64,000 nt of DNA from Candidatus Uhrbacteria bacterium RIFCSPHIGHO2_02_FULL_46_47. Lineage in GTDB: Bacteria; Patescibacteriota; Patescibacteriia; GWA2-47-26. The notes beneath the pieces are model-generated. The model saw only the letters and a list, made by a program, of their open reading frames with translations, made no database searches and was not told the origin of the DNA. A program made the position numbers and the translations under genes. Shown piece by piece: positions 4,180 through 57,182 of this stretch. How positions within the stretch are numbered: position 1 is the first letter of the stretch; each line of letters begins with the position of its first letter. The stretch is taken from contig MGDU01000001.1 of the NCBI GenBank assembly GCA_001790815.1, positions 2,982-66,981 on the forward strand, given 5' to 3'.

Positions 4180-4904
4180 AGCTTTTCAAAAATCAACTGC
4201 TGGGTGCGTGCGATATTATGATCCTCAACTACAACGCCAAGCGGCATCGACGCGCGGTCAATCGCGATGTGCGCGGTCTTCGTGCCGTAAATTAAAGTAT
4301 AGGCCGGCGATCCCGCGTCTTTAGTCAGCCATTTGCGTTGCGAAAGCATATCTTCTTTTCCTCCTTCTCCAAGTGCAATAACTTTTACCTCAATACCTCG
4401 TTTAATTCGTTCCTTGGTGAATTGCGGAAAACTTTTATGCAATACGTCTCGTAAATTTGAAGAAGAGTAAACATAGTATTCCTTTTGCCGCTCGCCGCCA
4501 AGTGTTGCCAGCACATCTTGCAGAATATTTTTTACTCCGGAAAGTCCCTCGTAATACCGTGCAACTGGCTTATCGCCGCCGCGATTATACATGGATTGAA
4601 GCTCCGGGATAATACTTTGAATTTTTTCGCGCAACCGACTCATTTCTTCAAGCCGTCCATCCAAATGGCGCTCAAGTTTCATTGGATCTTCCGCCACAAA
4701 ATATTGTTTCTTTTCTTTATGATAGTAAACCACAAGACCTTGTTTCATCAGGTGTTTTAAAATATCATAAGTCGTGCCGCGGTTTATTCCGGCTGATTGC
4801 GCTATTTTACGTACTGACGCAGGGCCAAGACTAAGCAAAATCAAATACACGCGGATCTCTTTTTCATCAAAACCTAATTTTTTGAGAATTTGAACTACAT
4901 CCAT
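4164..4904 (-). CDS. TrmB-family sugar-responsive transcriptional regulator
   Basis: N-terminal wHTH (LGFDEKEIRVYLILLSLGPASVRKIAQSAGINRGTTYDILKHL) plus TrmB C-terminal domain; start moved to internal Met (MDVVQ); divergent from pfk. Confidence 0.6.
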   Translation of the reverse strand: MDVVQILKKLGFDEKEIRVYLILLSLGPASVRKIAQSAGINRGTTYDILKHLMKQGLVVYYHKEKKQYFVAEDPMKLERHLDGRLEEMSRLREKIQSIIPELQSMYNRGGDKPVARYYEGLSGVKNILQDVLATLGGERQKEYYVYSSSNLRDVLHKSFPQFTKERIKRGIEVKVIALGEGGKEDMLSQRKWLTKDAGSPAYTLIYGTKTAHIAIDRASMPLGVVVEDHNIARTQQLIFEKLWSTL

Positions 4905-5130
4905 ATGCGTGTAGCGTGTAACGTATAACGTGTAACTCAAGAACCATTTATTCCAATCTTGCGCTATACGCTACAGGTTACAAGTTACACGTCTAGCTGT
5001 CAACTTTTTCTCTGCACAATATGTGGATAAGTCAAAAACTGCCTTAAATTATAGATAATATGCGTATTTTAGTGTCAATAATGCACATGACACTCTGGAC
5101 AGCTTATATATATTAGGGTATAACTTCATT

Positions 5131-7788: not shown

Positions 7789-7958
7789 GTGAACTTGTTT
7801 TATTTTTTGAGAGTAACCGCATCCAAAGAAATCCAAATTTGTGCTTCAGTGTTTTTGACCGATTAGTAACGCTCGGCTCAAATCCTTACGGATCTTTCAC
7901 CTGCGCCCTATCAACCTCATAATCTCTAAGGAGTCAAATAAGACCTAATCTTGAGGAC

Positions 7959-7997
<39 letters not shown>

Positions 7998-8134
7998 AAC
8001 GCTGCTACTGAGCAATGCCCTTGGTAGAACAACTCATACACAGGAGGTTCGTTCTTTCCGGTCCTCTCGTACTAGGAAAGAGCCCTCTCAAGTCTTTGCG
8101 CCCGCGACAGATAGGAGACCGAACTGTCTCACGC

Positions 8135-8318
8135 ATGTATATTCATTATTTCTAATGGCATGGACTATATCTTCATCCCGATTATACATCGGGAGCCAAC
8201 GTGTAGTCTCTACGGACTCTCTGCTTTCGCAGGTTGCCTCGGTATTACCCTCTTGAACAGTTCGAAATTCAAGGAGGGCTTCACCGATACAGTTGGTGCT
8301 AGAACGGCATTACTGCCG
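8135..8318 (-). mobile_element. group I intron 1 in 23S (E. coli ~2593 region), ORF-less, boundaries approximate
   Basis: Insertion between GAACGUC and GUGAGACAG exon sequence; contains S-like GAAGAUAUAGUCC and R-like GUAGAGACUAC core elements. Confidence 0.5.
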
Positions 8319-8345
8319 CCAAACGCCATGCTCCCAGATTGGGAG

Positions 8346-8379
<34 letters not shown>

Positions 8380-8404
8380 TGGCGAACAGCCAAACCCTTG
8401 GGAC

Positions 8405-9170
8405 CTCATTTCTTGTTATCTCCGCTTACGCGGAGTACCAGACTATACCATCACCATAGTTGCAATCGTCACCGATTGAACCGTAGGTGCGAACCGTATG
8501 ATAGTGGCATAATTCATAATAATATCCAAAGCCATCTATCTCACTACGATCTTGCATCGGAGATCAGTCGTTACGGGAGCGCTTGTCTTTGATCATTGTC
8601 GCATGATTGATGCGGCGATTTTTTGATCGCACATTCAATCGCGCCAATGTATCCGCCAAACGAGCCGCCACCATCAATTCCTTAGGAGAATTGATCGTGC
8701 CACTTAGCAATCGTAATGCTTTTGTGGTTTGCTGATTCTTAATCTTGAAATAAGGTTTCAATATAGTCAACAGTTCCTTAATTTCACTTTGCTTCCGTAA
8801 AAGCCAATCATACGTAGTGCGATTTTTACGCACTAGTCCGCAATGGCATTTATTTTGCAACCAATGCAGAATTTTGGGATTGGCTTGGGTTGCTTTTAAA
8901 ACAACCCGAATACGGAAACCAAATTTTTTCTCCTTGTGCCGTTCGATCGTCGCCATTATGGCGCCGTCGGCATCAAGAAAACCAGCAATATATGCTCGCT
9001 CGACTTCAGACAATCGCTTTCCCACGGGGTTAACCTTCATACATTCAAATTATACCTGGGACCTGCGATTTACACAAGTCGATATAATTCAAATTATGAA
9101 GGCCTTCACCGTTTTGAGCTCGTTTATTACTCCGACGTTTCCGTCGGAGAGAGAAGGTTATGTTTTCTCC
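8405..9170 (-). mobile_element. group I intron 2 in 23S (~2563), carries a LAGLIDADG ORF
   Basis: Exon ...GGGGCUGGAG resumes at 9175; GGUCCCAAGGG at 8400; intervening 765 nt encodes ORF 8564..9040. Confidence 0.55.
8564..9040 (-). CDS. LAGLIDADG homing endonuclease (single motif, 158 aa), intron-encoded
   Basis: YIAGFLDADGAI motif; located inside a 23S insertion. Confidence 0.8.
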   Translation of the reverse strand: MKVNPVGKRLSEVERAYIAGFLDADGAIMATIERHKEKKFGFRIRVVLKATQANPKILHWLQNKCHCGLVRKNRTTYDWLLRKQSEIKELLTILKPYFKIKNQQTTKALRLLSGTINSPKELMVAARLADTLARLNVRSKNRRINHATMIKDKRSRND

Positions 9171-9206
9171 AGCCCCAGGATGCGATGAGCCGACATCGTA
9201 CATTAA

Positions 9207-9613
9207 TCCACGATTTCGCGTGGTGCAGACTATATCTTCATCTTGCTCCGGATCGTAGTCCCGCGGACGCGGGACATAATCTCAGTTTGATTATAGCAAG
9301 AGTCGGCGTTTTACCCGGGCGCCACTTTCTGGCGCGCCAAGTCTTCCCTTTCGGGTCAGTCGTTACGGGGTCATGAGCGCTATGCGCTAAATTACTAATT
9401 TCTAATTGTTCTAATTTCTAAATTTTAGGAATTAGGTTAATTAGGTTAATTAGATATTCACTGCTTTGCAGTGCTGACTTCCCACGGTATCGCCGGGTAG
9501 CGCGGGCGCGCTACTGACGGGTCCACCGTTATAAGCCGATTTTATTGTCTCTATCTAAACTAAATGGTTTTGACGAAAAGACTGGAAACAAATCACTTTG
9601 TATGCACCCCGAT
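9207..9613 (-). mobile_element. group I intron 3 in 23S (~2500), ORF-less
   Basis: Insertion between GAGCCGACAUCG and GGUGCCAAAC exon blocks; S-like GACUAUAUCUUC at 9228; contains AT-rich hairpin aattaggttaattaggttaattag. Confidence 0.5.
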
Positions 9614-9847
9614 ATGTTAAGGTGCCAAACCTTGCCGTCGCTATGGGCGCTTGGGCAAGATCAGCCTGTTATCCCCGGAGTAGCTTTTATCCGTTGAGCT
9701 TCGCCGGTCCTATGACCGAGCGTCGGATCACTAACTTCTACTTTCGTATCTGCTCGTCTTGTATGACTCGCAGTCAAGCAGGCTTTTGCGTTTGCACGTC
9801 ATGCTCGATTTCCATCCGAGCTAAGCCTACCTTTGTAAACGCCTCCG

Positions 9848-10513
9848 TTACCTTTTAGGCAATTGTGTTAGCCAAACCTTGGGCAACTTATACCGCATTG
9901 AAGGAATCACGAATGGTTCGATGAGAGTAAGAAATCGTTCGATGGTTTCTCCTATCACATACAATTGCATCCCATCTCGATCCTTTCGTGTATTGGTTTT
10001 AATTCCAAACTTTTTAAGTAGTGCACTCTGAAGTCGTTCCATACTCTGCAGATCGAATCCTTGCGTATTCAGAAATACAGTGCGATGATGCTTCGATTTA
10101 ATTGATCCGTCATCCATATACCATACTGCGAGCACAAGTGGTGTAAGCCATCTATGGATCAATTGTGGCACTACCTTGTTTCCTTTGCGGTAGAATTGCT
10201 GAGCACAGAATCGGAATGAACCTGAGCTTAATGTATTGAAGTAATACTTTGGATATATTCCCGAGACGCTTCGAAGTCGCACAAATCGTTCGCGAACCTT
10301 TGGTAAAGTCAACACCCACTCCCGAAATTCGTTGTGGATCCAATCCACATATTCTTTCTGCTTGAGTGTGTGCTCAATCTTTAGCCGATAGGTTCGCCCA
10401 TGATCCTGCGTTTCTAAATGTCCATCTCCAAGAAGTGTTCCTACAAGAATCTCTTGCTGACGCGAAGTCAACTTGAGTTTATTCTTATATGTTGCTATTG
10501 CATTACTATGCAT
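9848..10513 (-). CDS. LAGLIDADG homing endonuclease (two motifs, 221 aa), intron-encoded
   Basis: ILVGTLLGDGHLE and LAVWYMDDGS motifs. Confidence 0.8.
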   Translation of the reverse strand: MHSNAIATYKNKLKLTSRQQEILVGTLLGDGHLETQDHGRTYRLKIEHTLKQKEYVDWIHNEFREWVLTLPKVRERFVRLRSVSGIYPKYYFNTLSSGSFRFCAQQFYRKGNKVVPQLIHRWLTPLVLAVWYMDDGSIKSKHHRTVFLNTQGFDLQSMERLQSALLKKFGIKTNTRKDRDGMQLYVIGETIERFLTLIEPFVIPSMRYKLPKVWLTQLPKR

Positions 10514-11147
10514 AGATTTGGTGTTCGAATTATTCGAACTCTCTATGTCGCCATAGAGTTCAGACTATATCATCTCCTCCGAAGGACTTCGGAGGAGTCG
10601 AGCGTGTAGTCGTTGAGGGGCCAATTTGCCCAGATTTTTGGACTTGACTTACTTTATACTTTGTGCTATATTGCTCACCAAGGAGGTTCCCATGTCGCAG
10701 AAGGCTCGCAACACGCACCTACTCTACGGTTTGCTGATCTACGGTTTTTTCGGAACGTGCTTGATGGTGATGTTCTCCGCCATCGCCCGCGGGTGCTACT
10801 CAATGTACTTTCGCTGAGCGCAACCGCGATCGCTCTGCCAACTCACCTGTGTCGAAGACGCAGGTGGGTTCTTCTTTTTTTATTTGAAATAAGTCCAAAA
10901 ATCTGAGCAAACGGCTTCCCTGCTGATTGTCCGCAGTCCGATATTTTCACCACACTTTTAAGTGCGGTAATCGGACATACTCCGGATGTTCCAGCATATA
11001 GTCCCGACGTTCGCCTTTGGCGAAGTCGGGATCCCGATCCCTTTACGGGCATCGGGACTCAATATTGCGTTCTGCATTACTGCAGAACCGCCCCTAAGGA
11101 TTCGTCCTCCGATGTCCATCGGAGGCGTAACGGAATTGAATCCTTGT
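9870..11147 (-). mobile_element. group I intron 4 in 23S (~2066), carries a double-motif LAGLIDADG ORF
   Basis: Exon GGGGCGGAUGCCUC (11150) continues at CUAAAAGGUAACGGAGG (9868); 1.28-kb insertion with ORF 9848..10513 and an S-like element at 10560. Confidence 0.55.
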
Positions 11148-11449
11148 TGAGGCATCCGCCCCAGATAAACTGCCTACCAGGCCCTGTTCCTCTGCGTCGA
11201 TTCAGGCGCAAAGGTAAGGAGTAAAATATAGAAAGGGTGGTGTTTCATTGTCGTCCCGCTTGCGCGGGACTCCCACCTACGCTAAACATTCCATGCCCTA
11301 CCCCAAGACCAAGCTACAGTAAAGCTTCACGGGGTCTTTTCGTCTAGCCGCGGGTAACTCGCATCTTCACGAGTCTTGCAATTTCGCCGAGTCCCTCGTT
11401 AAGACAGTTCTCAAGTTGTTATGCCATTCGTGCAGGTCGGAACTCCATT

Positions 11450-11733
11450 TACTTCATCATGTTACCATGATGTTTAGACTATACTTTCATCTGGCTACAA
11501 TCATTAGGAGATATAATCTCCATGGAATGCTTTTTCAGCCAGAGCCGACGTGTTGGCCATCCCGATAGATATCGGGACAACCCTCTCCTTTCGGATCAGT
11601 CGTTACGGGGTCAGTCCGCCTAGGCGGGACGACTTCCCACGGTATTGTCCTATTGTATCATAGGATATCCACCGTTATGAGTCGGCGTACTAATGCCATG
11701 TCGCCACAGCATTCGGGCGAGTGTTCCCGACCG
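11450..11733 (-). mobile_element. group I intron 5 in 23S (~1931), ORF-less
   Basis: Exon GCGAAAUCCCUUGUCGGGUGAA (11735-11768) and ..GGAGUUCCGACCUGCACGAAUGG (11447) separated by 285 nt carrying GACUAUAC S-like and gtcagtcgttacgggg elements shared with introns 2 and 3. Confidence 0.45.
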
Positions 11734-11756
11734 GAAACATTGTTCACCCGACAAGG

Positions 11757-12040
11757 GATTTCGCTTATCGTGTTACTCATCCTATTAAGGATGGGCATGG
11801 TCATTTCTGCCATGCTCTGCATGTCGCCATGCAGATCGGACTCTATCTTCTCCACGTATTTGATACGGGAGTCTGGCATATAGTCTCTACGGACTCTCTC
11901 AACACTTTCGTGTTAAGGTTGCCTCGGTATTGTCTCGATGCTTATCGAGATGTTCACCGATATAGTCAGATTTTCTTCTACATCTTCGCAGGCATTGCGA
12001 AGTTCGAAGGGGGTCTTTCACCCCACTAAGGCAGCAATTC
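11757..12040 (-). mobile_element. group I intron 6 in 23S (~1917), ORF-less
   Basis: Exon ..GUCCUAAGGU (12045) joins AGCGAAAUCCC (11757); core gtagtctctacggactctct..ggttgcctcggtatt is nearly identical to intron 1. Confidence 0.45.
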
Positions 12041-12744
12041 CACCTTAGGACGATTATAGTTATCGCCGGCGTTCATCAGCGCTTCGGTTCAAAGCTGCCG
12101 CGCGCCTTGCGGCGCACATGACTTCTCTCCTTAACGTTCTGACACTGGCCAGGCATCAGCCCCTATACATTGTCTTACGACTTCGCAGGGACCTATGTTT
12201 TTGGTAAACAGTCACTTGAGAGACGCTTGTTGCAGCCCCGCTTGCGCGGGGCAGGCCTTATCCCTAAGTTACGGCCACTTTTTTGCCGAGTTCCTAAACG
12301 AGGGTTCTCTCGTTCACCTTGGCACAATTGTGCCCGGGGACCTGTGTCGGTTTACGGTACGGTTGCCAAAAGACAGGGCTTCAAAGCTTTTCTAGGCGTA
12401 CTCTTTACTCTCATCTGATCCACCTTGCGGCTTCACATTACCCTTTGCAGGGACGTGCGTATCCAAAAACACGCGGGAACTCCGAGAACGCGCACCTTGA
12501 AATGACTCTTTCGGCAGTGCAGGAATATTAACCTGCTGTCCATCGACTACGCCTTTCGGCCTCGCCTTAGGACCGACTAACCCTGGGACGATTTGCGTTG
12601 CCCAGGAAACCTTCCCCTTACGGTGTGAAGGGTTCTCACCTTCATTTGTGCTACTTATGCCAACATTCTCTCTTCTTGCCGCTCCATGGCGGCTCACGCC
12701 TACCACTTCAACGCAGCAAGAATGCTCCCCTACCGCCGACGCTC

Positions 12745-12885
12745 CGCGTCGGAATTTCTAATTTCTAATTGACCTAATTTCTAATAAAATTTCCAATGCC
12801 CAATGTTTAATTTCCAAGTTTGGTTATTAGGTATTGGTACTTTTGGATTTTATTAGGTGAATTAGGTGAATTAGGTGAATTAGAC
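12745..12885 (-). repeat. AT-rich palindromic expansion hairpin inside 23S (replaces E. coli helix ~1165-1185)
   Basis: aatttctaatttctaatt...attaggtgaattaggtgaattaggtgaattag arms are near reverse complements; no group I core; flanked by contiguous exon sequence. Confidence 0.5.
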
Positions 12886-12976
12886 ATTTCCCGATGCGAA
12901 GCATCGACTCTTGTCTTCGGTACGCCGCTTAAGCCCCGGTACATTTTCGGCGCGGCACGGCTCGACCAGTGAGCTG

Positions 12977-13025
<49 letters not shown>

Positions 13026-15252
13026 TTGAGCCGCACCACTTCCTTTCACACTGAGCGGTCCCGATGCCCTTGCGGGATACGGGATGCCGACTTCACGTCG
13101 GCACGATTTTGGGACCTTAGACGAAGATCAGGGCTGTATCCCTTTTGAGCGATGGAGCTTAGCCCCCATGCTCTGACTCCCAAGGTACATCATACGGCAT
13201 TCGGAGTTTGATTCGATGCGACGGATTGCTCCGCCACGATCGATTCAGTGCTCTACCTCCGCAGACAATCCTTGAGGCTATACCACAGTATATTTCGGGG
13301 AGAACCAGCTATTACCCAGTTCGATTGGCATTTCACCTCTAACCACAGATCATCCCAAAGTGTTGCACAGCTTACGGGTTCGGGCCTCCATCTGTCTTTC
13401 GACAAACTTCACCCTGTCCATGGTTAGCTCACTGGGTTTCGGGTCTTGTGCACGCTGCTTGTCCGCAGATTTATCGACGCAGATAACGCTGATACAAATC
13501 AGCGAAATCAGCGCCAAAAAATCAGCGGGGTCGCCCTTTCAGACTTGGTTTCCCTGCGCCTTCGTCCCGTAGGACTTAGACTTTGCAACGCGCAACAAAC
13601 TCGTTGGCTCATTCTTCAATAGGAACACCATAACCGCTACGTAGCAGCGGAAATCCGAATTTCGAAATCCGAATGTCGAAATTTAATTCGTCATTCGTCA
13701 TTCTGGTTTCGTCATTCCCGATGCTACGCATCGGCGTTGATTCCTTGTAAGCGTATGGTTTCAGGTTTTATTTCATCGGCCTCACCGGCCTACTTTTCAC
13801 CTTTCCCTCATGGTACTTGTTCACTATCGGTGATGGAGGAGTATTTAGCCTTGGCGCATAGTCGCGCCGGTTTCCCACGGGATTTCACGTGTCCCGCGGT
13901 ACTCAAGTATAGTCATAGTAAGGCGATAACCCCTTTCGCGTACGGGACTGTCACCCTCTTTGGTTCCGCATTCCAGCGGATTCTACTAGGGAAGCTATGC
14001 TTTGTACACCCTACCTCGCCTTTCAAGGCAGCGATCATGACAAACTTACAACTTCTTCTACTTATGTAGCCCTTGAGCCTTCCGCAACGCACGTAGCGTC
14101 ACACCTTTCGATGCAACACTCGCCTCGCTACTTAAAAGTAGAAGATCTAGGCTTTTCCCCGTTCGCTCGCCACTACTAGGGGAATATCCACAAAAAATCG
14201 GGCACGAAACTCACGAAATAATTTCGTGTCTTTTCGTGTTTCAATTTTCGTGGTCTTTATTTTCTTTTCCTCTGGTTACTGAGATGTTTCACTTCACCAG
14301 GTTTACTTCGCCCACATTGCTGTGGGAGATTATGCAGTTCAACACTGCATAGGGTTGCCCCATTCGGACATCGCCGGATCAAAGCTTGCTTGCCAGCTCC
14401 CCGACGCTTATCGCAGGCTGCTACGTCCTTCATCGCCTCTCCATCCCAAGGCATCCACCATACGCCCTTGACACTGAAGCACAAATTTAGATTCTTTTGA
14501 TAATAGTTGACTAGTCGAAACTAGCAACTCGTTTTGATGCGATTACTCTCTACTAATTAAATTGTCAAAGTTCTCCAGTTCGCACCACAGATCAGATGGT
14601 CAACCTCATCTCTGAAGCGAAAATAAAAGATCCCGCGTACGCGGGACCCGTAAATTACACCGAAAAAAGACGGCTACCCGCTAGGACAAGTTAATTTCAG
14701 AACTTTTCGCATATTTAAGCTTAAAATTCAGCCTCCTTACCGTCTGTATCTTGCACCTGCTAGTATGCCATATCCCTTAAAATGTGTCAACCCCAGCCCT
14801 TCCACAGGGTATTCACAATGGGCTACAACCGCGGCGATTCCGCGCGCGACGAAGCCAGCAACGGCCACGACCCGCGCTTCGCCTAGCCGCACCTTCCCAC
14901 CTTCCACCACGCACCCGCTCTTCACACCCACCGCAAGCAACGCCATGTCTCCCCGACCTCTGGCGTTCTTCTTTTTATGCAAAAATGTAGCCGCAGGTCT
15001 TTAGCCTGCGTTCAATTGCGCCACCTAAAGAGCGGCGACTACAATTATGATGACTCCACATAAGAAAAACACCTTGGTAAGTCAACCACATCTATCCACA
15101 CCCTACATTGACAAACTATATGAATGTGGTATGCTTACAGTGGTTATCAATTCGAGGAATCACACTCCTACGAGGAGTCACTAAGCAGCCCACAAGGGCT
15201 GTTTTGCGTTAAAGCGCTATACAATATGAATCAGGAATTTTTGATTTATTAT

Positions 15253-25088: not shown

Positions 25089-25706
25089 TTGTTAATCCCA
25101 CTGCCTTCTCTCGCTTCGGCGGGGGACGGCAGTTTTGATTATAGTATGACAAAAGCATTCGTATTTATTGATGGAAGCAATTTTTACTTCCGATTAAGAG
25201 ATTTATCGGAACAAGTCAACGGAAAGTACAGCTTGCTTAATTTCAATTTTCGCGGGCTTGCGGAATGGATTGTACAACCTGATACCCTAATGGAAGCACA
25301 CTACTATGTTGGCGCAATACGTCGTCAACGTAATAACGAGAAAGCTGAAAAAATGTATGCGAATCAACAAAAACTAATTGCAAAATTACAACAACAAAAA
25401 ATATTCATAACACTGGGACAACTTATTCAACATCCGGATAAAACATTCCATGAAAAAGGCGTTGATGTACGGCTTGCCGTAGAGATGATCCGTTTTGCTC
25501 GCGAAAATAAATATGACATTGCGTATTTACTCAGCTCGGACACGGACTTAGTGGCGGCGGTTGAAGAAGTAAAATCATTTGGTAAAAAGGTTCAGTATGT
25601 CGGGATTGCAAAAGGACAATCCTTTGGCTTGACGAAAGTTGCCAATGATGTGCGATTGCTCCGTCCAGAAGATATTAAACCGTTCTTATCGAAATCGCTT
25701 ATATAA
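25089..25706 (+). CDS. NYN-domain (LabA-like) protein
   Basis: VFIDGSNFYF and LSSDTDLVAAVEEV motifs. Confidence 0.55.
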   Translation: MLIPLPSLASAGDGSFDYSMTKAFVFIDGSNFYFRLRDLSEQVNGKYSLLNFNFRGLAEWIVQPDTLMEAHYYVGAIRRQRNNEKAEKMYANQQKLIAKLQQQKIFITLGQLIQHPDKTFHEKGVDVRLAVEMIRFARENKYDIAYLLSSDTDLVAAVEEVKSFGKKVQYVGIAKGQSFGLTKVANDVRLLRPEDIKPFLSKSLI

Positions 25707-25710
25707 TAAT

Positions 25711-25950
25711 GGAGGGGTGCTCCGAATGGCTAACCCCGCACCAGAGCAGAGCTCGATGCGGGGCATGGGAACCGGCGGTGTCCCGTATGGAGAGCGGAGG
25801 GTTGTGCCGAACGGCTAAGGCACTGGTCTCGAAAACCAGCGGGCGCAAGCCCTTGCAGGTTCGAATCCTGCACCCTCCGCTCTCTCGTGCGGGATTTCGA
25901 AAACCGGCGCTCGCAAGGGCATGTGGGTTCGACTCCCACCCCCTCCGCCA
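25711..25950 (+). ncRNA. outer tRNA-like structure whose halves flank tRNA-Ser (split/intron-containing or rearranged second tRNA-Ser copy?)
   Basis: 5' GGAGGGGUGCUCCGAAUGGCUAA is homologous to the tRNA-Ser 5' end; 3' ..UUCGAAAACCGG-CGCUCGCAAGGGCAU-GUGGGUUCGACUCCCAC-CCCCUCC-G-CCA is homologous to the tRNA-Ser 3' half and pairs with the 5' GGAGGGG as an acceptor stem; encoded CCA. Confidence 0.3.
25796..25879 (+). tRNA. tRNA-Ser (anticodon CGA), class II with long variable arm
   Basis: GGAGGGU/ACCCUCC acceptor, U8, anticodon loop CUCGAAA, variable arm CGGGCGCAAGCCCUU, T arm GCAGGUUCGAAUCCUGC. Confidence 0.75.
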
Positions 25951-26065
25951 GAAAGGATTTTGCAAGGATTCGCCACGCTCCGCGTGGCGTGAATGAAAGC
26001 GCGCGGTTCTGAATCAGGAAGTGTGATAATTTGCTAAAAATGATCCGCCTCACTAATAAGCGAAT

Positions 26066-26515
26066 ATGATCAATCCACACTATATTAGTGGTTTAATCGA
26101 TGGTGAGGGAACCTTCACCTATACAAAAAATGGAGGAAGGGTTTATCCCTATTTTGCCATCAAGCTTAATGTAAAAGATCTGCCTTTACTTGAAAAAATT
26201 AAAGAATTTTTTGGTTGTGGAGAGATATACCATAGTCCTGCGCGAACATATACTATGAACGGTTTCACATATACTTCCGGAGAATTAGTAAACTTAAAGG
26301 TTTTTCGTATGGATGAGTTGATGAAGCTGGTGTGGCATTTTTTGGATTACCCTTTGGAAGGTAAAAAAGCAGAAGCCTTCAAAATTTGGAAAGAAATGGT
26401 TATGATTAAAACTGTGAATCGAAAAGAAGACTGGCCAAAACTACATGATCTTGCAGAAAAGCTTACTTTGGCCAATGGAGGAAAAAAGAAAAGACCTCGC
26501 AAGGGCAAGACTTGA
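26066..26515 (+). CDS. free-standing LAGLIDADG homing endonuclease (single motif, 149 aa)
   Basis: YISGLIDGEGTF motif; basic C-terminal tail. Confidence 0.7.
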   Translation: MINPHYISGLIDGEGTFTYTKNGGRVYPYFAIKLNVKDLPLLEKIKEFFGCGEIYHSPARTYTMNGFTYTSGELVNLKVFRMDELMKLVWHFLDYPLEGKKAEAFKIWKEMVMIKTVNRKEDWPKLHDLAEKLTLANGGKKKRPRKGKT

Positions 26516-26792: not shown

Positions 26793-27746
26793 ATGGCTCA
26801 AAGCAGAAGGTCTTGGTCCAGGGGAAGAGCCAGAACAACAGGAGAAAAGACCTTGAACACGGTCAAGCGGACAGAGTTTCACCCCGACAAGTTCGCCGTG
26901 CTTGCGGCGATCGACCCGAACCTGCGGATCGAGCAGATTCGCGGGGTCTGCGTGGCGCCCGACGGCCAGAACATCGCCCTCTTCACGACGGAGGCGGGCC
27001 AGCGGATCGGCGAGAAGCGCGCGCTCGGCGTGTACGAGTACGGCAAGGACCACGCCGTCGACACGTTCACCGAGGTGGAGGGCGTGCAGTTGCTCTCCGG
27101 CACTCCGGGCATCCAGAACAACCCCGCGCGCGCGAGCATCGTCAAGGGCCTGAAGGGGCTGTTCGTGCGCGAGGACAAGAACGTGCTCGTGTGCAGCAAG
27201 CCCACGGGCGTGATCGGCTACTACCTCTACTCGAGCCCGACGGCGGAGCCGATCGACCTCACGACGCAGGACCTGGACTTCACCGAGGTGGTGTTCCTGC
27301 CCAAGCCCCGTGGCTACGTGGCTCGCGAGGCAAGGAGCAACTGCCTGTGGTTCCTGCCATTCGCAACCGCCAAGACGGGCACGGCCGGGCGGGTCGCCTG
27401 GAACATGAGCAACGCGCTACCCGGCGTCTCGGCGATCATGTCGCTACCGCCGCGGATCCAGAACAACCGCGCGGTGCTCTGCTCGACGCTCGAAGGCGAT
27501 CGGCAGTGCAGCGACACGCTCAACCTGTCGAGCATCGGAAGCAGTCAGATCACGAGCGTCGCGCGCGAGGGCGATGTCAACAGCATCGTCTTCCGCTGCT
27601 TCGCGAGCCACGAGGTCGCGATCATCGAGGTGGGCGTCGGGGCCAAGACGCTGGAACCCGGGACCTGGCAGGTTCCGACGGCTGATCTGCCGGAGCTCTT
27701 CGGCAAGGCAGGCGCCGCGCTCGTCTCGGCTTCGGCTCCGCTCTAG
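26793..27746 (+). CDS. hypothetical protein in a 68%-GC island
   Basis: Only frame with balanced composition; other overlapping ORFs are Arg/Ala-rich GC artefacts. Confidence 0.4.
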   Translation: MAQSRRSWSRGRARTTGEKTLNTVKRTEFHPDKFAVLAAIDPNLRIEQIRGVCVAPDGQNIALFTTEAGQRIGEKRALGVYEYGKDHAVDTFTEVEGVQLLSGTPGIQNNPARASIVKGLKGLFVREDKNVLVCSKPTGVIGYYLYSSPTAEPIDLTTQDLDFTEVVFLPKPRGYVAREARSNCLWFLPFATAKTGTAGRVAWNMSNALPGVSAIMSLPPRIQNNRAVLCSTLEGDRQCSDTLNLSSIGSSQITSVAREGDVNSIVFRCFASHEVAIIEVGVGAKTLEPGTWQVPTADLPELFGKAGAALVSASAPL

Positions 27747-27916
27747 TCGCCAGCGACGGCGACAAGCCCTGCCCGTGAGTTGGTAGGGAGCACCTTCCAA
27801 GTACATCAGTACGAGTGAATTCCAGGCCAAGCTGGTCTTGGTCTGAGAGTTTCCGCCGGCACCGACGCGCAAGCGCACGGGCCGGTCTTTTAATTTTGTG
27901 ATAAGATAAGCATACT

Positions 27917-30439
27917 ATGTCCAAAGAACGCTTTATGATAATTGACGGCAATGCCCTGGTGCACCGGGCATTTCATGCGCTTCCGCCGCTTTCCACCAAA
28001 GACGGTAAAATAGTCAATGCCGTATATGGATTTACAACAGTTTTGATGAAGGCATTGAAGGAGCTCAAGCCGGAATACGCGGCGGTAACTTTTGATTTAG
28101 CCGCGCCGACTTTTCGGCACAAGTTATACAAAGAATATAAAGCGCAACGTATAAAACAGCCGCAAGAATTATATGATCAACTGCCACTGGTTAAAGAAGT
28201 GGTGCGCGCGTTTGATATTCCGGTAGTGGAGAAAGAGGGATTTGAAGCTGATGATGTAATCGCGACTTTGTCGCGAAAATCCCAAATCCCAAGCACCAAA
28301 TCACAAATCGAAACGATTATTGTAACTGGAGACATGGACACATTGCAACTTGTGGATGAGAATACCAAAATTTACAGTTTTCGCAAAGGATTTTCCGATA
28401 CATTTATCTATGATGCACAAGCAGTGCAAGAGCGCTATGGACTCACGCCGGAGCAAATGGTGGATTACAAGGCCTTGCGCGGCGACCCATCTGACAATAT
28501 TCCGGGTGTGCGCGGTATTGGCGAAAAAACTGCTGTGGAATTATTGAAGGAGTTTAGCTCAGTAGAAAAACTATACAAAGAAATTGATAAAGAAAGTGTA
28601 CGCGCTAAAACAATACGGCCCAAAGTGTTGGAGCTGTTAAAACAATATCGAGAAGACGCAATGCTTGGCAAGAAGCTGGTGGAATTGGTAAAAGATGTGC
28701 CGCTTTCAGTATCGCTCAAAGATTGTAAACTAAGCGAACCAGATAAGAATAAGTTGAAAGAGATTTTTGAAAAATTTGAATTCAGGAATTTGTTGGCGCG
28801 ATTGGAAAAAAAAGATGTAGCCGCAGGTCTTCAGCCTGCGCAAAAAGCACAAGGATCGTTGTTGGGTAACCCCTCACCTGACCTTCAGTCATCCTCTCCA
28901 TCAGGGAGAGGGAAGGGTGAGGGTGGGATGTCACCCCTTTATGTTCGTGAAGGCAACACCATCATCGGCCACGATCTAAAATCAATACTACATACTACCC
29001 CCTACGCACTACCTCCTCCATTTTTTGACACCATGATTGCCTCTTATCTTTTGCATCCGGGAAGAGGCATGCATGACTTTGAAAGTGTTTTGCGTGAGCA
29101 CAATATGGAGCTGAATGGTCAAGCAGTGGTATTGCTTGCACAAAAACTTCAAGGGGAGCTGGCAAAAGAGAATCTCACGCCAGTATTTGAAAGTATTGAA
29201 ATGCCGCTTATTCCAGTGCTTGCGAAAATGGAGGGGATTGGCATTAAAGTGGATACGCCCTATTTAAAAAAATTATCTGTGCAATTTGCCAAAGAGTTAG
29301 ACGGATTTCAGAAAAAAATCCACAAACTCGCGGGCGAGGAATTTAATATTGCCTCACCAATGCAGTTACGCGAGGTGCTGTTTGAAAAAATGAAACTAGC
29401 TCCGGAAACTGGTCGCATTAAAAAAACCGCCAAAGGCAAAGTTGCCTCCACTGCCGCGGGCGAGCTTGAAAAATTGCGCGGACTACACCCCATTGTGGAT
29501 TTAATTTTTGATTATCGCGAGATTGCCAAATTGCAATCCACCTATACTGACGCTCTTATAGAATTAGTTGATAAAAAAGACGGCCGGGTGCACACTACTT
29601 TTAATCAAGCTGTAACTGCTACGGGTCGACTCTCCTCATCAAGTCCTAATTTGCAAAATATTCCGATTCGCACTGAAACCGGACGCCTGATTCGCAAAGC
29701 CTTTGTGGCTGAAAAAGGATATGTGCTTTTGTCTGCGGATTATTCGCAAATTGAATTGCGCGTAGCGGCTTCGCTTTCCGGCGATCCTGAACTTATTAAG
29801 GCATTTAAAAGTGGACATGATTTTCATGCCCATACCGCCTCATTGATGTTTGGTGTAGCTGAGGATAAAGTAACCAAGGAGATGCGGCGCAATGCCAAAG
29901 CCATTAATTTTGGAATTATTTATGGCATGGGTGCCACTGCGCTTGCGCAATCAACCGGTATGCCGCGCTATGAAGCCGAACAATTTATCGCGCGTTATTT
30001 TGAAGTGTTTAATGGCTTGCGCGATTATTTGGAAGGGTTAAAAGAGAAAGCCCGCACCAAAGGATATGTAGAAACGCTTTTTGGCCGCCGGCGATATCTT
30101 CCGGAAATAAATTCCGGTGTGCAACAAGTCCGCGCCGCGGCCGAGCGCATGGCCATTAATATGCCGGTTCAAGGCACCGCAGCAGATTTGATGAAAATGG
30201 CCATGATTAAAATTCATCAAGAACTACGTGCTACTTCCTACATACTACATACTAATGCACGCATGCTTCTCCAAGTGCATGATGAATTGGTCTTTGAAAT
30301 TAAAGAAGATCAAGTGACAGAAATTGCACCAAAAATTAAATCCATCATGGAAACCGTGCACACTTTCAAAGTCCCAATCCTTGTAGAACTCAAAACAGGC
30401 AAAAATTGGGGAGAGCTTTCTCCATTTTCCTCCCCTTAG
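27917..30439 (+). CDS. polA: DNA polymerase I
   Basis: 5'-3' exonuclease N-terminus (IIDGNALVHRAFHAL); polymerase motifs (RRNAKAINFGIIYG, QVHDELVFE); contains in-frame repeat insertions and a repeat-encoded C-terminus. Confidence 0.9.
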   Translation: MSKERFMIIDGNALVHRAFHALPPLSTKDGKIVNAVYGFTTVLMKALKELKPEYAAVTFDLAAPTFRHKLYKEYKAQRIKQPQELYDQLPLVKEVVRAFDIPVVEKEGFEADDVIATLSRKSQIPSTKSQIETIIVTGDMDTLQLVDENTKIYSFRKGFSDTFIYDAQAVQERYGLTPEQMVDYKALRGDPSDNIPGVRGIGEKTAVELLKEFSSVEKLYKEIDKESVRAKTIRPKVLELLKQYREDAMLGKKLVELVKDVPLSVSLKDCKLSEPDKNKLKEIFEKFEFRNLLARLEKKDVAAGLQPAQKAQGSLLGNPSPDLQSSSPSGRGKGEGGMSPLYVREGNTIIGHDLKSILHTTPYALPPPFFDTMIASYLLHPGRGMHDFESVLREHNMELNGQAVVLLAQKLQGELAKENLTPVFESIEMPLIPVLAKMEGIGIKVDTPYLKKLSVQFAKELDGFQKKIHKLAGEEFNIASPMQLREVLFEKMKLAPETGRIKKTAKGKVASTAAGELEKLRGLHPIVDLIFDYREIAKLQSTYTDALIELVDKKDGRVHTTFNQAVTATGRLSSSSPNLQNIPIRTETGRLIRKAFVAEKGYVLLSADYSQIELRVAASLSGDPELIKAFKSGHDFHAHTASLMFGVAEDKVTKEMRRNAKAINFGIIYGMGATALAQSTGMPRYEAEQFIARYFEVFNGLRDYLEGLKEKARTKGYVETLFGRRRYLPEINSGVQQVRAAAERMAINMPVQGTAADLMKMAMIKIHQELRATSYILHTNARMLLQVHDELVFEIKEDQVTEIAPKIKSIMETVHTFKVPILVELKTGKNWGELSPFSSP

Positions 30440-56800: not shown

Positions 56801-56939
56801 CTTTTGTAAAAATTTATGATAGTTTATAGTCAACTTCGCCCCTGTAGCCCCGAAGCACTTTATGGTCGGGGAGCCGACCTCCGACGCGGTGGTCGGAGCA
56901 TGTGGAGCGTCGGCTTTCAATGGACCCCGCACCTTCTGC

Positions 56940-57012
56940 GCCCCCATAGCTCAATGGATAGAGCAGTGCTCTTCTAAGGCATTGATGTACGTTCGACTCG
57001 TGCTGGGGGCAG
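56940..57012 (+). tRNA. tRNA-Arg (anticodon TCT)
   Basis: GCCCCCA/UGGGGGC acceptor, U8, anticodon loop CUUCUAA; embedded in a 14-bp inverted repeat (ccccgcaccttctg ... cagagaaggtgcgggg). Confidence 0.65.
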
Positions 57013-57053
57013 AGAAGGTGCGGGGCAGATAGAACTGTGAATTTCTCAATAGT

Positions 57054-57129
57054 GGGGTGCCTATGGTGTAATGGCAGCACAGAGCCCTGTGGAGGCTTTA
57101 GTTCGGGTTCGAATCCCGATAGGCACCCC
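57054..57129 (+). tRNA. tRNA-His (anticodon GTG) with encoded G-1
   Basis: Extra 5' G pairing with C73; anticodon loop CUGUGGA; T arm GGGUUCGAAUCCC. Confidence 0.7.
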
Positions 57130-57182
57130 ATTGTTGAGAAAGAAACGAGGCCAAAAGGCCTCGTTTTCTGTTTTCCCGCAAT

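Follow-up and report, generated by a model that had tools for sequence, protein, structure and literature searches.

A tRNA-Ser(CGA) gene nested within a second, interrupted tRNA-Ser(CGA) gene in Candidatus Uhrbacteria and other Patescibacteria

A stretch of 64,000 nt from Candidatus Uhrbacteria (Patescibacteria, candidate phyla radiation, CPR), called the window throughout, contains a locus of 240 nt on the plus strand (25711-25950) at which one tRNA-Ser(CGA) gene lies between the pieces of another; such an arrangement is called a nest here. The inner gene (25796-25879) encodes a class II tRNA-Ser(CGA), presumably the working one, without an encoded CCA end. It was called by ARAGORN at 25796-25880, and the Rfam family RF00005 matched 25796-25879 with 51.9 bits, the gathering score being 29. 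In the unmodified window both programs reported one tRNA only at the locus, which is this inner gene. An earlier note on this DNA had described the complete inner tRNA together with tRNA-like flanks, and both were confirmed: the flanks comprise 23 nt upstream (25711-25733) and 56 nt downstream, from the anticodon loop to the terminal GCCA (25895-25950).

The flanks belong to an outer tRNA that is divided into three exons. Exon 1 (25711-25733, plus strand, GGAGGGGTGCTCCGAATGGCTAA) contains the acceptor strand GGAGGGG, U8, G9, the 5' strand of the D-stem and the D-loop with G18 and G19. It is followed by insertion 1, 33 nt in the D-loop (25734-25766, plus strand), which formed a hairpin CCCCGCA...TGCGGGG and then CAT in the minimum free energy (MFE) fold, and the pairing of which is confined to one 7-bp and one 4-bp helix. 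Exon 2 (25767-25775, plus strand, GGGAACCGG) contributes GGGA as the 3' strand of the D-stem, A26, and CCGG as positions 27-30 of the anticodon stem. The earlier note had stated that the outer molecule lacks exactly these two strands, and this statement has to be corrected. Insertion 2 (119 nt, 25776-25894, plus strand) carries the inner tRNA. Exon 3 (25895-25950, plus strand) starts with U31, which pairs with A39 in the outer tRNA, and contains the loop UUCGAAA with the anticodon CGA (25898-25900), the 3' strand of the anticodon stem, a long variable arm, the T-arm, and, at its 3' end, the acceptor strand CCCCTCC, G73 and CCA. When 25711-25733, 25767-25775 and 25895-25950 were joined, ARAGORN called an 88-nt tRNA-Ser(CGA) with an encoded CCA, i.e., a cloverleaf was recognized once the insertions had been removed. 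The exon boundaries were set by hand, and those of insertion 1 are independently backed by an insertion-free relative, locus L226, which is described below (the L numbers denote individual loci).

The MFE of the 240 nt was -130.2 kcal/mol (z = -5.3), and none of 200 shuffled sequences was as good. In this fold GGAGGGG (25711-17) pairs with CCCCTCC (25940-46), which is the outer acceptor stem that the earlier note had proposed, and CCGG (25772-75) pairs with CCGG (25904-07). The helix closing the inner tRNA, also noticed before, comprises 16 bp (25780-25795 with 25879-25895) and is stacked on the inner acceptor stem, and both together form 23 stacked pairs with one bulge. The outer T-arm is the only T-arm in the window outside any tRNA called by ARAGORN. 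In addition, the pattern of a T-loop, a short gap, a Ser anticodon loop and a T-loop matched the window once and gave no match in 100 shuffled versions.

The first part of insertion 2 (25776-25795, plus strand) comprises the 5-nt spacer CGGTG and the helix strand TCCCGTATGGAGAGC, the leader of the inner tRNA, and the last part (25880-25894, plus strand) is the helix strand CTCTCTCGTGCGGGA, the trailer. A helix of the same type was found at the tRNA-Arg(TCT) gene of the window (56940-57011, plus strand; whole unit 56925-57025). There the strands CCCCGCACCTTCT (56925-56937) and AGAAGGTGCGGGG (57013-57025) form a perfect 13-bp leader/trailer helix of -30.6 kcal/mol. The orthologous helix of the contig with locus L174 is formed by CCCCACTCCAT and ATGGAGTGGGG and thus covaries with that of the window, and tRNA-Phe in L174 also has a 13-bp leader/trailer helix. 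Because such helices flank tRNA-Arg(TCT) and tRNA-Phe outside any nest, insertion 2 is an ordinary Patescibacteria tRNA unit that was placed within another tRNA gene. The termini of insertion 1, CCCCGCACC and TGCGGGGCA, are those of the tRNA-Arg(TCT) helix. These observations suggest that some tRNAs of these bacteria share a leader/trailer stem that would serve precursor processing. At tRNA-His (57057-57130) a similar but weaker helix was seen.

Two patterns were used to search for further nests. The first asked for the T-loop of an inner tRNA, followed after a short gap by the anticodon loop of a tRNA-Ser(CGA) and then by another T-loop, and it was run on 185,579 genomes. It matched 101 places, most of which were due to chance or represented tRNAs in tandem or in truncated form. 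Three turned out to be real nests, each of them in Patescibacteria, namely L058 (Parcubacteria GW2011_GWD2_43_10), L084 (Saccharibacteria) and L091 (Peribacteria). The helix CCCGTA...TACGGG abutted the outer anticodon loop in all three, although it was not part of the pattern. The second pattern required the closing helix, allowed any NGA anticodon, and was run on metagenomes. It revealed L119 (= L191), L123 (= L141), L174 (= L183), L202, L145 and L176 (= L185); L188 is a nest of the L176 type with one different base. Every nest had the anticodon CGA, although the second pattern permitted NGA. Parcubacteria (L058, L174), Saccharibacteria (L084) and Peribacteria (L091) are the labelled groups with a nest, and L119, L176 and L145 are additional metagenome lineages. 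At least seven Patescibacteria lineages other than that of the window have the nest. In all lineages the insertion point was after outer nucleotide 30, the 3' exon began at nucleotide 31, and the helix was CCCGYA...TRCGGG and lay directly next to the anticodon loop. Among viral contigs there were 11 pattern matches and no tRNA nest. The searches showed that the nest recurs in CPR lineages that are distant from one another, at an insertion point that does not vary; the finding that the earlier note had named as adverse, relatives with the inner tRNA alone, was not made, and the same nesting was seen instead.

In several lineages the outer tRNA is interrupted by extra hairpins. D-loop hairpins lie at 17/18 in L174 and L119, and the site of insertion 1 in the window, 20/21, is also occupied in L119, L176 and L145; at this latter site the termini resemble those of insertion 1 in L119 and L176, and the match is less clear in L145. 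L084 has an extra hairpin at 26/27, and T-loop hairpins were found at 56/57 in L176 and at 57/58 in L119. In L176, for example, the T-arm reads GCGAG TTC, then 30 nt, then GAAT CTCGC, and it is followed by CCCTTCC, G and CCA. The extra hairpins were confined to loops or junctions, and the exon halves were intact. The inserted hairpins of L119 and L188 were unique within their loci. ARAGORN called the spliced outer constructs of the window, L174, L176 and L084, but not those of L119, L145 and L091.

The pairing of the outer stems was analyzed across seven lineages. Segments of fixed length were picked for the acceptor stem, the anticodon stem including 31:39, four variable-arm pairs and the T-stem; this replaced an automatic alignment of the spliced outer tRNAs, which misaligned the variable arms and L091. 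In the outer stems 91% of the cells were paired, and 17 of the 21 pairs had changed on both sides. The covariation score was 0.689, compared to 0.25 for shuffled data (reached in 0 of 500 cases) and 0.10-0.23 for slid partners, and it was similar to the score of 0.625 for the closing helix plus inner tRNA. In six of the seven lineages 20-21 of the 21 outer pairs were intact, and in L145 it was 11; the inner tRNA had all 21 checked stem pairs intact in all seven. Stem identity between lineages was 0.53-0.55 for the outer and 0.59 for the inner tRNA. In the seven-lineage alignment of insertion 2 the closing helix was 96% paired with four pairs changed on both sides, and its core CCCG.A / U.CGGG was invariant. 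The outer acceptor pairs were GGAGGGG/CCCCTCC, GGAGAGG/CCTCTCC, GGAAGGG/CCCTTCC, GGAGAGA/TCTCTCC and GGAGGCG/CGCCTCC. They differ from the inner acceptor pairs of the same genome, and therefore copying from the inner tRNA is no explanation. The earlier note had named missing covariation of the outer acceptor as a point that would count against its proposal, and compensatory changes were seen across lineages. The results show that outer-stem pairing has been maintained through compensatory change. An inner-versus-outer tree for dating the duplication did not separate the clades, the sequences being too short and saturated.

Close relatives were compared next to one another. The segment 25690-26070 was 100% identical among six independent metagenome contigs, and therefore the locus is not an assembly artefact; the recurrence of the architecture in other lineages led to the same rejection. 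Locus L226 has an NYN-domain gene with 82.8% nucleotide identity to that of the window, and 36% of the third positions within identical codons differ. Its sequence runs to the end of the contig as GGAGGGGTGCTCCGAATGGC-AA-GGAACCG, i.e., exon 1 is directly joined to exon 2, without insertion 1. Compared to the window, the approximately 29 nt of flanking exon had no substitution and two 1-nt length differences, and the first 20 nt were identical. Such a sequence would be expected from an allele without an intron or from an unoccupied insertion site, and with its absence from L226 and the unsubstituted exon around it, insertion 1 appears to behave like an intron.

Differences between strains were also seen. 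L174, L123, L202 and L058 represent one species (99.3-99.7% identical), as does L141 (= L123), and the first four share the same sequence as far as the outer anticodon loop and differ beyond it. The 3' half of L174, CCTCTCC, matches its own outer 5' strand GGAGAGG, and an HNH-like gene and another open reading frame (ORF) follow. A cassette in L174 (12963-13547 of the reverse complement) starts exactly in the outer anticodon loop, where L123 and L202 carry alternatives. Its HNH-like ORF encodes 194 aa and matches Pfam HNH with E = 0.0019, which is below the cut-off, and at the end of the cassette there are a degenerated version of the helix motif and the final 12 nt of the outer tRNA.

The locus is situated downstream of an NYN-domain gene (25089-25706), and another neighbour is DNA polymerase I (27917-30439). 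The stop codon of the NYN gene overlaps a TATAAT box (25702-25707, plus strand), a -10-like box read from the sequence 4 nt 5' of the start of the outer tRNA, and is the putative promoter of the entire composite transcript. In most other lineages a TANNNT box or a similar AT-rich one was found 4-22 nt before the outer 5' end, and inspection by eye revealed a comparable -10-like box before the inner tRNA only in L084. A consensus promoter scan of the plus strand that also required a -35 box found no promoter.

The NYN protein is unusually conserved, with 70-80% identity across Parcubacteria and 739 homologues at E <= 0.001. It may be an RNA-processing enzyme, but its association with the tRNA locus is not a conserved one. 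In L010 (1077-2333) the NYN gene lies directly 3' of a gene for a LigT-type 2'-5' RNA ligase / phosphoesterase. Synteny via the NYN gene was not informative, since the neighbourhood differs in L007-L012 and a tRNA adjoining the NYN gene is kept only in L226 and L227. The nearest homologues of DNA polymerase I are 71% identical and have no tRNA-Ser nearby, and thus synteny via this gene was abandoned as well.

Downstream of the outer tRNA, at a distance of 115 nt from its 3' end, a free-standing LAGLIDADG homing-endonuclease gene is encoded (26066-26515, plus strand; Pfam PF00961, E = 1.3e-15). The GC content is 63.7% in 27001-28000; thus the LAGLIDADG gene and the GC-rich stretch mentioned in the earlier note are both present. 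The LAGLIDADG protein is identical to one from Candidatus Uhrbacteria bacterium RIFCSPLOWO2_01_FULL_47_24. Its homologues (58-84% identity) are encoded downstream of tRNA-Ala(CGC) and tRNA-Arg(CCT), beside short duplications of tRNA 3' ends. The gene was therefore rejected as a marker of the nest, and the family belongs to tRNA loci generally; it may drive rearrangements there. In L220, L223 and L225 a conserved hairpin ACATAAGCC...GGCTTATGT precedes the LAGLIDADG homologue, and the duplicated 3' ends are ATTCGCGCTGGGGGCA, present twice in L220, and GGTCCACCA, present twice in L225. A GC-rich ORF of 317 aa without a Pfam match is located at 26793-27746; its called length is 290-317 aa (shorter at contig ends) among the otherwise identical contigs L001-L006, and similar ORFs without annotation come after the LAGLIDADG gene in relatives.

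Other rearranged tRNA loci were encountered during the searches. In L035, L040 and L067 (Peribacteria) a complete tRNA-Thr(GGT) or tRNA-Ser(GGA) is followed by a conserved segment of about 50 nt, CCACTCGAAATRCCATTNAAGGYATTTCTCCG, and then by a repeated tRNA 3' end, so that this segment occurs at two different tRNAs. L051 and L071 (Paceibacterota / Parcubacteria) are from two species and have 4.6 kb in common at 89% identity, starting from the T-arm of different tRNA-Gln(CTG) genes, which is probably an integrated element; in L051 a tRNA-Gln 5' fragment (18 nt identical), hairpins and then GGACAACTG lie upstream of the complete gene. In L083 and L101 (Coriobacteriaceae) and in L054 and L076 (Bacteroidia), a complete tRNA-Ser(GGA or TGA) is followed after a few nt by a tRNA-Ser(CGA) without its first approximately 20 nt, and the variable arm of the truncated copy shows compensatory differences between the two Coriobacteriaceae species. 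A nest of tRNA-Ile(GAT) was found in L092 (Berkelbacteria MEZY01000050.1), on the minus strand at about 4636-4905 of the reverse complement. Nucleotides 1-34 of the inner tRNA-Ile are repeated 85 nt upstream and nucleotides 36-76 29 nt downstream, and A35 is missing. Neither outer piece differs from the corresponding part of the inner gene, and the inner tRNA lies between the arms of an inverted repeat, AAGTATTTTCGA / TCGAAAATACTT. Elsewhere in the window, the 23S rRNA gene (7855-14467, minus strand; three Rfam matches) contains group I introns at 8142-8356 and 11817-12051 and further unassigned insertions, and no 16S rRNA gene was found in the 64 kb.

Several known kinds of insertion were compared with the two junctions. 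The motif known as bulge-helix-bulge (BHB) was found neither at insertion 2, where the end of exon 2 (ACCGG) cannot pair with UGCG (nt 4-7 before the insertion end), nor at insertion 1, where CUAA cannot pair with GGGG. Each junction is situated at the foot of a plain hairpin and faces an internal loop of 4-5 by 8 nt. Neither a BHB intron, with its 4-bp helix between two 3-nt bulges, nor a kink-turn nor a target-site duplication fits the sequence at the junctions. At 25650-26060 Rfam gave no match to group I introns (RF00028) or any other intron family, even at E values up to 10. A group I intron was ruled out by this result and by the sizes of 33 nt and 119 nt, compared to more than about 200 nt for such introns. 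A dispersed repeat, i.e., a repetitive extragenic palindrome or a miniature inverted-repeat transposable element, was also rejected, because CCCGYA occurred 50 times in the window at 59 expected and there was only one other such hairpin in 64 kb. No integrase was found among the neighbouring ORFs, no transposase was found nearby, and the anticodon loop sequence is not repeated at the left junction. In the literature, no paper was found on such tRNA interruptions in CPR bacteria, and none that links EndA or RtcB to Patescibacteria.

Taken together, the analyses show that the locus is a complete outer tRNA-Ser(CGA) that is interrupted by helix-bounded insertions of one family, and that the largest insertion carries a complete tRNA-Ser(CGA) as cargo. 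The following working is proposed. A single transcript would start just upstream of 25711, as the TATAAT box suggests, and would run through 25950 (step 1). It would fold into nested cloverleaves with the outer acceptor, variable and T arms, an anticodon stem of 4-5 bp and the long helix leading into the inner acceptor stem (step 2); this folding is proposed because both the MFE fold and the covariation support it. By established tRNA processing, the inner tRNA would be released by RNase P at 25795/25796 and by RNase Z after G25879, the latter because it has no encoded CCA, and CCA would be added (step 3). Finally, the hairpins would be removed and the outer exons would be rejoined or held together by their stems, which would yield a second tRNA-Ser(CGA) with an encoded CCA (step 4). 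The chemistry would be neither group I self-splicing nor archaeal BHB/EndA splicing.

Steps 1 to 3 and the existence of a family of intervening sequences with a cargo tRNA are held with much higher confidence than step 4. It seems doubtful to us that the outer tRNA is produced, be it by splicing or by assembly. The lean towards a use of the outer pieces arises because the outer exons are still constrained in most lineages: the pairs are kept in six of seven, the exons of L226 are unchanged, and hairpins occur in loops only. The account as a whole, including the lean towards some continued use of the outer RNA, is put forward tentatively, at slightly less than even confidence. Its most far-reaching version would be a tRNA splicing pathway of Patescibacteria, neither group I nor BHB/EndA, that excises helix-bounded insertions at several sites of tRNA-Ser(CGA), with the largest intron encoding a second tRNA and with an intron family that is mobile between sites and lineages, like archaeal tRNA introns. 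This version is considered rather unlikely; if it were true, one transcript would give rise to two tRNAs, one of them by splicing.

A number of observations weigh against a functional outer tRNA. To our knowledge, no bacterial machinery for removing such insertions has been described. In the window the outer D-stem is weak (C10.A25, U11.G24), and the outer and inner tRNA carry the same anticodon, so that the outer tRNA is redundant. In L227 the NYN gene is 86.5% identical to that of the window, and the inner tRNA matches at 84 of 84 nt. Its outer 5' fragment GGTGGGGTGGCTGAGTGGCCAAA, however, is identical at only 17 of 23 nt, and the inner tRNA follows after 14 nt, without the middle exon and without the CCCGTA helix. 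Of the two relatives, L226 has thus conserved the outer gene, and in L227 it is disrupted or replaced. L123, L058, L141 and L202 have an inner-type 3' half, CGCCTCC, which is unable to pair with the outer GGAGAGG. L145 has no outer T-arm and no anticodon stem, and L091 has no 3' strand of the D-stem. Because of these broken or mismatched copies the outer tRNA is not essential. Homing-endonuclease genes adjoin two nest loci, and the nest is rare and scattered, with three species among the genomes searched with the first pattern. Both search patterns demanded an intact outer anticodon loop and were thus subject to ascertainment bias, and the exon segments for the covariation count were extracted by hand. 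The tRNA-Ile nest of L092 looks like a fresh, non-functional rearrangement, and its identical halves and missing A35 mean that nests can arise in this way.

The earlier note had offered an interrupted or split tRNA, a rearranged duplicate and an attachment-site remnant. Among these the interrupted gene fits best: it gained from the completeness of the outer gene after removal of the insertions, and it lost from the defective outer halves of several lineages. The serious rival is a decaying relic of an insertion. According to it, a site-specific selfish tRNA unit inserted after nucleotide 30, its cargo replaced the destroyed gene, so that the insertion came without cost, and the outer halves are dead DNA, young in certain lineages and decayed in others; homing by the neighbouring endonucleases may spread the unit, and insertion 1 and the T-loop hairpins would be tolerated in a dead gene. 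The sporadic and rare distribution would follow from this, as would the defective or mismatched outer halves in L123-type strains, L145, L091 and L227. Decay of dead halves is, however, difficult to reconcile with 20-21 of 21 outer pairs in six of seven lineages, in stems that are as diverged as those of functional tRNAs, and therefore either selection or many independent recent insertions would be needed. This rival finds further support in the strain differences between L174 and L123, which start exactly at the outer anticodon loop and include the HNH-like cassette, in the two tandem 69-nt copies of the tRNA 3' half in L202, in the fresh-looking tRNA-Ile nest, and in the adjoining LAGLIDADG gene with its relatives beside tRNA genes with duplicated 3' ends. 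Against it, the inner tRNAs are lineage-specific (stem identity 0.59) and give no indication that a common cargo has recently spread by horizontal transfer, no gene for a transposase or an integrase lies close by, and the hairpins do not recur as dispersed repeats. L226 could represent the unoccupied site of insertion 1; the lack of substitutions in about 29 nt of exon between L226 and the window speaks against the rival. Small streamlined genomes are generally thought to shed unused DNA quickly, whereas the outer halves persist and hairpins were gained only at loop positions. This rival is regarded as a real possibility that nevertheless stays well short of an even chance.

Another explanation is that the outer halves are never joined and serve as a processing scaffold, i.e., a tRNA-shaped clamp, made by pairing in the acceptor, T and variable arms, that fixes both ends of the precursor and protects the transcript or recruits enzymes for the maturation of the inner tRNA. 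The covariation of the outer stems, the apparent start of the transcript at the outer 5' end and a fold of the 240 nt far better than those of shuffled sequences are all compatible with a clamp, and leader/trailer helices are common in the tRNA units of these genomes. However, a simple clamp needs no conserved anticodon loop, G18 G19, T-loop sequence, G73 or encoded CCA; the T-loop halves kept around the insertions in L176 and L119 are relevant only if the insertion is removed; other tRNAs of the same genomes do without a scaffold; and strains with mismatched outer halves exist. The scaffold is thus considered improbable.

The last reading, in which the outer pieces are unrelated leftovers of integrase events or unequal recombination, is very improbable, because the outer halves are complementary to each other, and not to the inner tRNA, across lineages: the 3' piece does span the anticodon loop to the 3' end, as integrase identity blocks often do, and ordinary examples exist (the tRNA-Gln element of L051/L071 and the truncated tRNA-Ser(CGA) copies in Bacteroidia and Coriobacteriaceae), but neither integrase nor element genes lie between or beside the pieces, the anticodon loop is unrepeated on the left, the middle exon 25767-25775 completes the outer tRNA, and the same junction and helix occur in Parcubacteria, Saccharibacteria and Peribacteria. 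For these reasons the proposal of an attachment-site remnant in the earlier note has little support.

The interrupted outer tRNA can be compared with several known systems. Archaeal disrupted tRNA genes include those with multiple non-canonical introns, split and tri-split tRNAs and transposed introns in Thermoproteales (PMC4090602, PMC4390854, PMC10714607). Shared features are the use of several non-canonical sites (here the D-loop, 26/27, 30/31 and the T-loop), introns that are short, helix-forming and mutually similar, exons that are kept together through complementary sequences, and a presence of introns that varies among relatives while the exon sequence is unchanged. In contrast, the host is a bacterium, no BHB was found at the junctions when they were checked by hand, and the largest insertion holds a complete second tRNA of the same specificity, for which no report was found in the literature. 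A further parallel is an archaeal pre-tRNA-Trp, in the intron of which Clouet d'Orval and colleagues reportedly found a box C/D small RNA in 2001. In both cases a small functional RNA resides inside a tRNA intron and would be made from the same precursor, its release being presumed at the present locus. Unlike the BHB intron of pre-tRNA-Trp, which is at the canonical position and has a guide RNA as cargo, insertion 2 carries a whole tRNA.

The main interruptions of bacterial tRNA genes are group I introns in anticodon loops, as in cyanobacterial tRNA-Leu(UAA), rare group II introns aside. The insertions resemble them in their location in the anticodon region and in their sporadic distribution, but they lie in the D-loop and the anticodon stem rather than in the anticodon loop, and their size does not allow for a group I core. 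In bacterial 23S rRNA, RNase III excises intervening sequences without ligation. These sequences, too, are extended hairpins in a structured RNA gene and occur sporadically and in reduced genomes. The 23-bp helix of insertion 2 and the inner acceptor stem has the length required, about two turns of nearly perfect duplex, and would be a plausible RNase III substrate, while insertion 1 has only 7 + 4 pairs. In contrast to these sequences, the host here is a tRNA, and a working tRNA in three or four fragments would be without precedent. The rRNA genes of CPR bacteria contain many short uncharacterised insertions (PMC11270868).

Likenesses to mobile elements at tRNA genes were also considered. Free-standing homing endonucleases occur near tRNA genes, e.g., SegB in the tRNA cluster of phage T4, and Williams reportedly described in 2002 that the identity block of integrases at tRNA-gene attachment sites usually is the 3' piece from the anticodon loop. 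Common to these systems and the nest are tRNA genes as hot spots, a duplicated 3' piece from the anticodon loop, endonuclease neighbours and a strain polymorphism that begins at the anticodon loop. Different from attachment sites, the nest has neither an integrase nor a left core repeat; its outer halves enclose another tRNA and are complementary to one another, and the gene is completed by a small middle exon.

We know of no interruptions of bacterial tRNAs other than self-splicing group I introns, with rare group II introns aside, and multiply interrupted or split tRNA genes are regarded as archaeal, with few eukaryotic cases, and as tied to the BHB endonuclease. The recurrence of the nest hints at a type of tRNA-gene interruption that has not been described in bacteria. 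Standard tRNA finders report the inner gene only, and thus similar interrupted tRNAs would be invisible in CPR annotations. A bacterial tRNA that is cut by plain hairpins in the D-loop, the anticodon stem and the T-loop and the exons of which still covary across distant CPR lineages points either to a new route of RNA processing and joining in these reduced bacteria or to a new type of selfish insertion that makes good its own damage with a replacement tRNA, and either outcome bears on the origin of disrupted tRNA genes.

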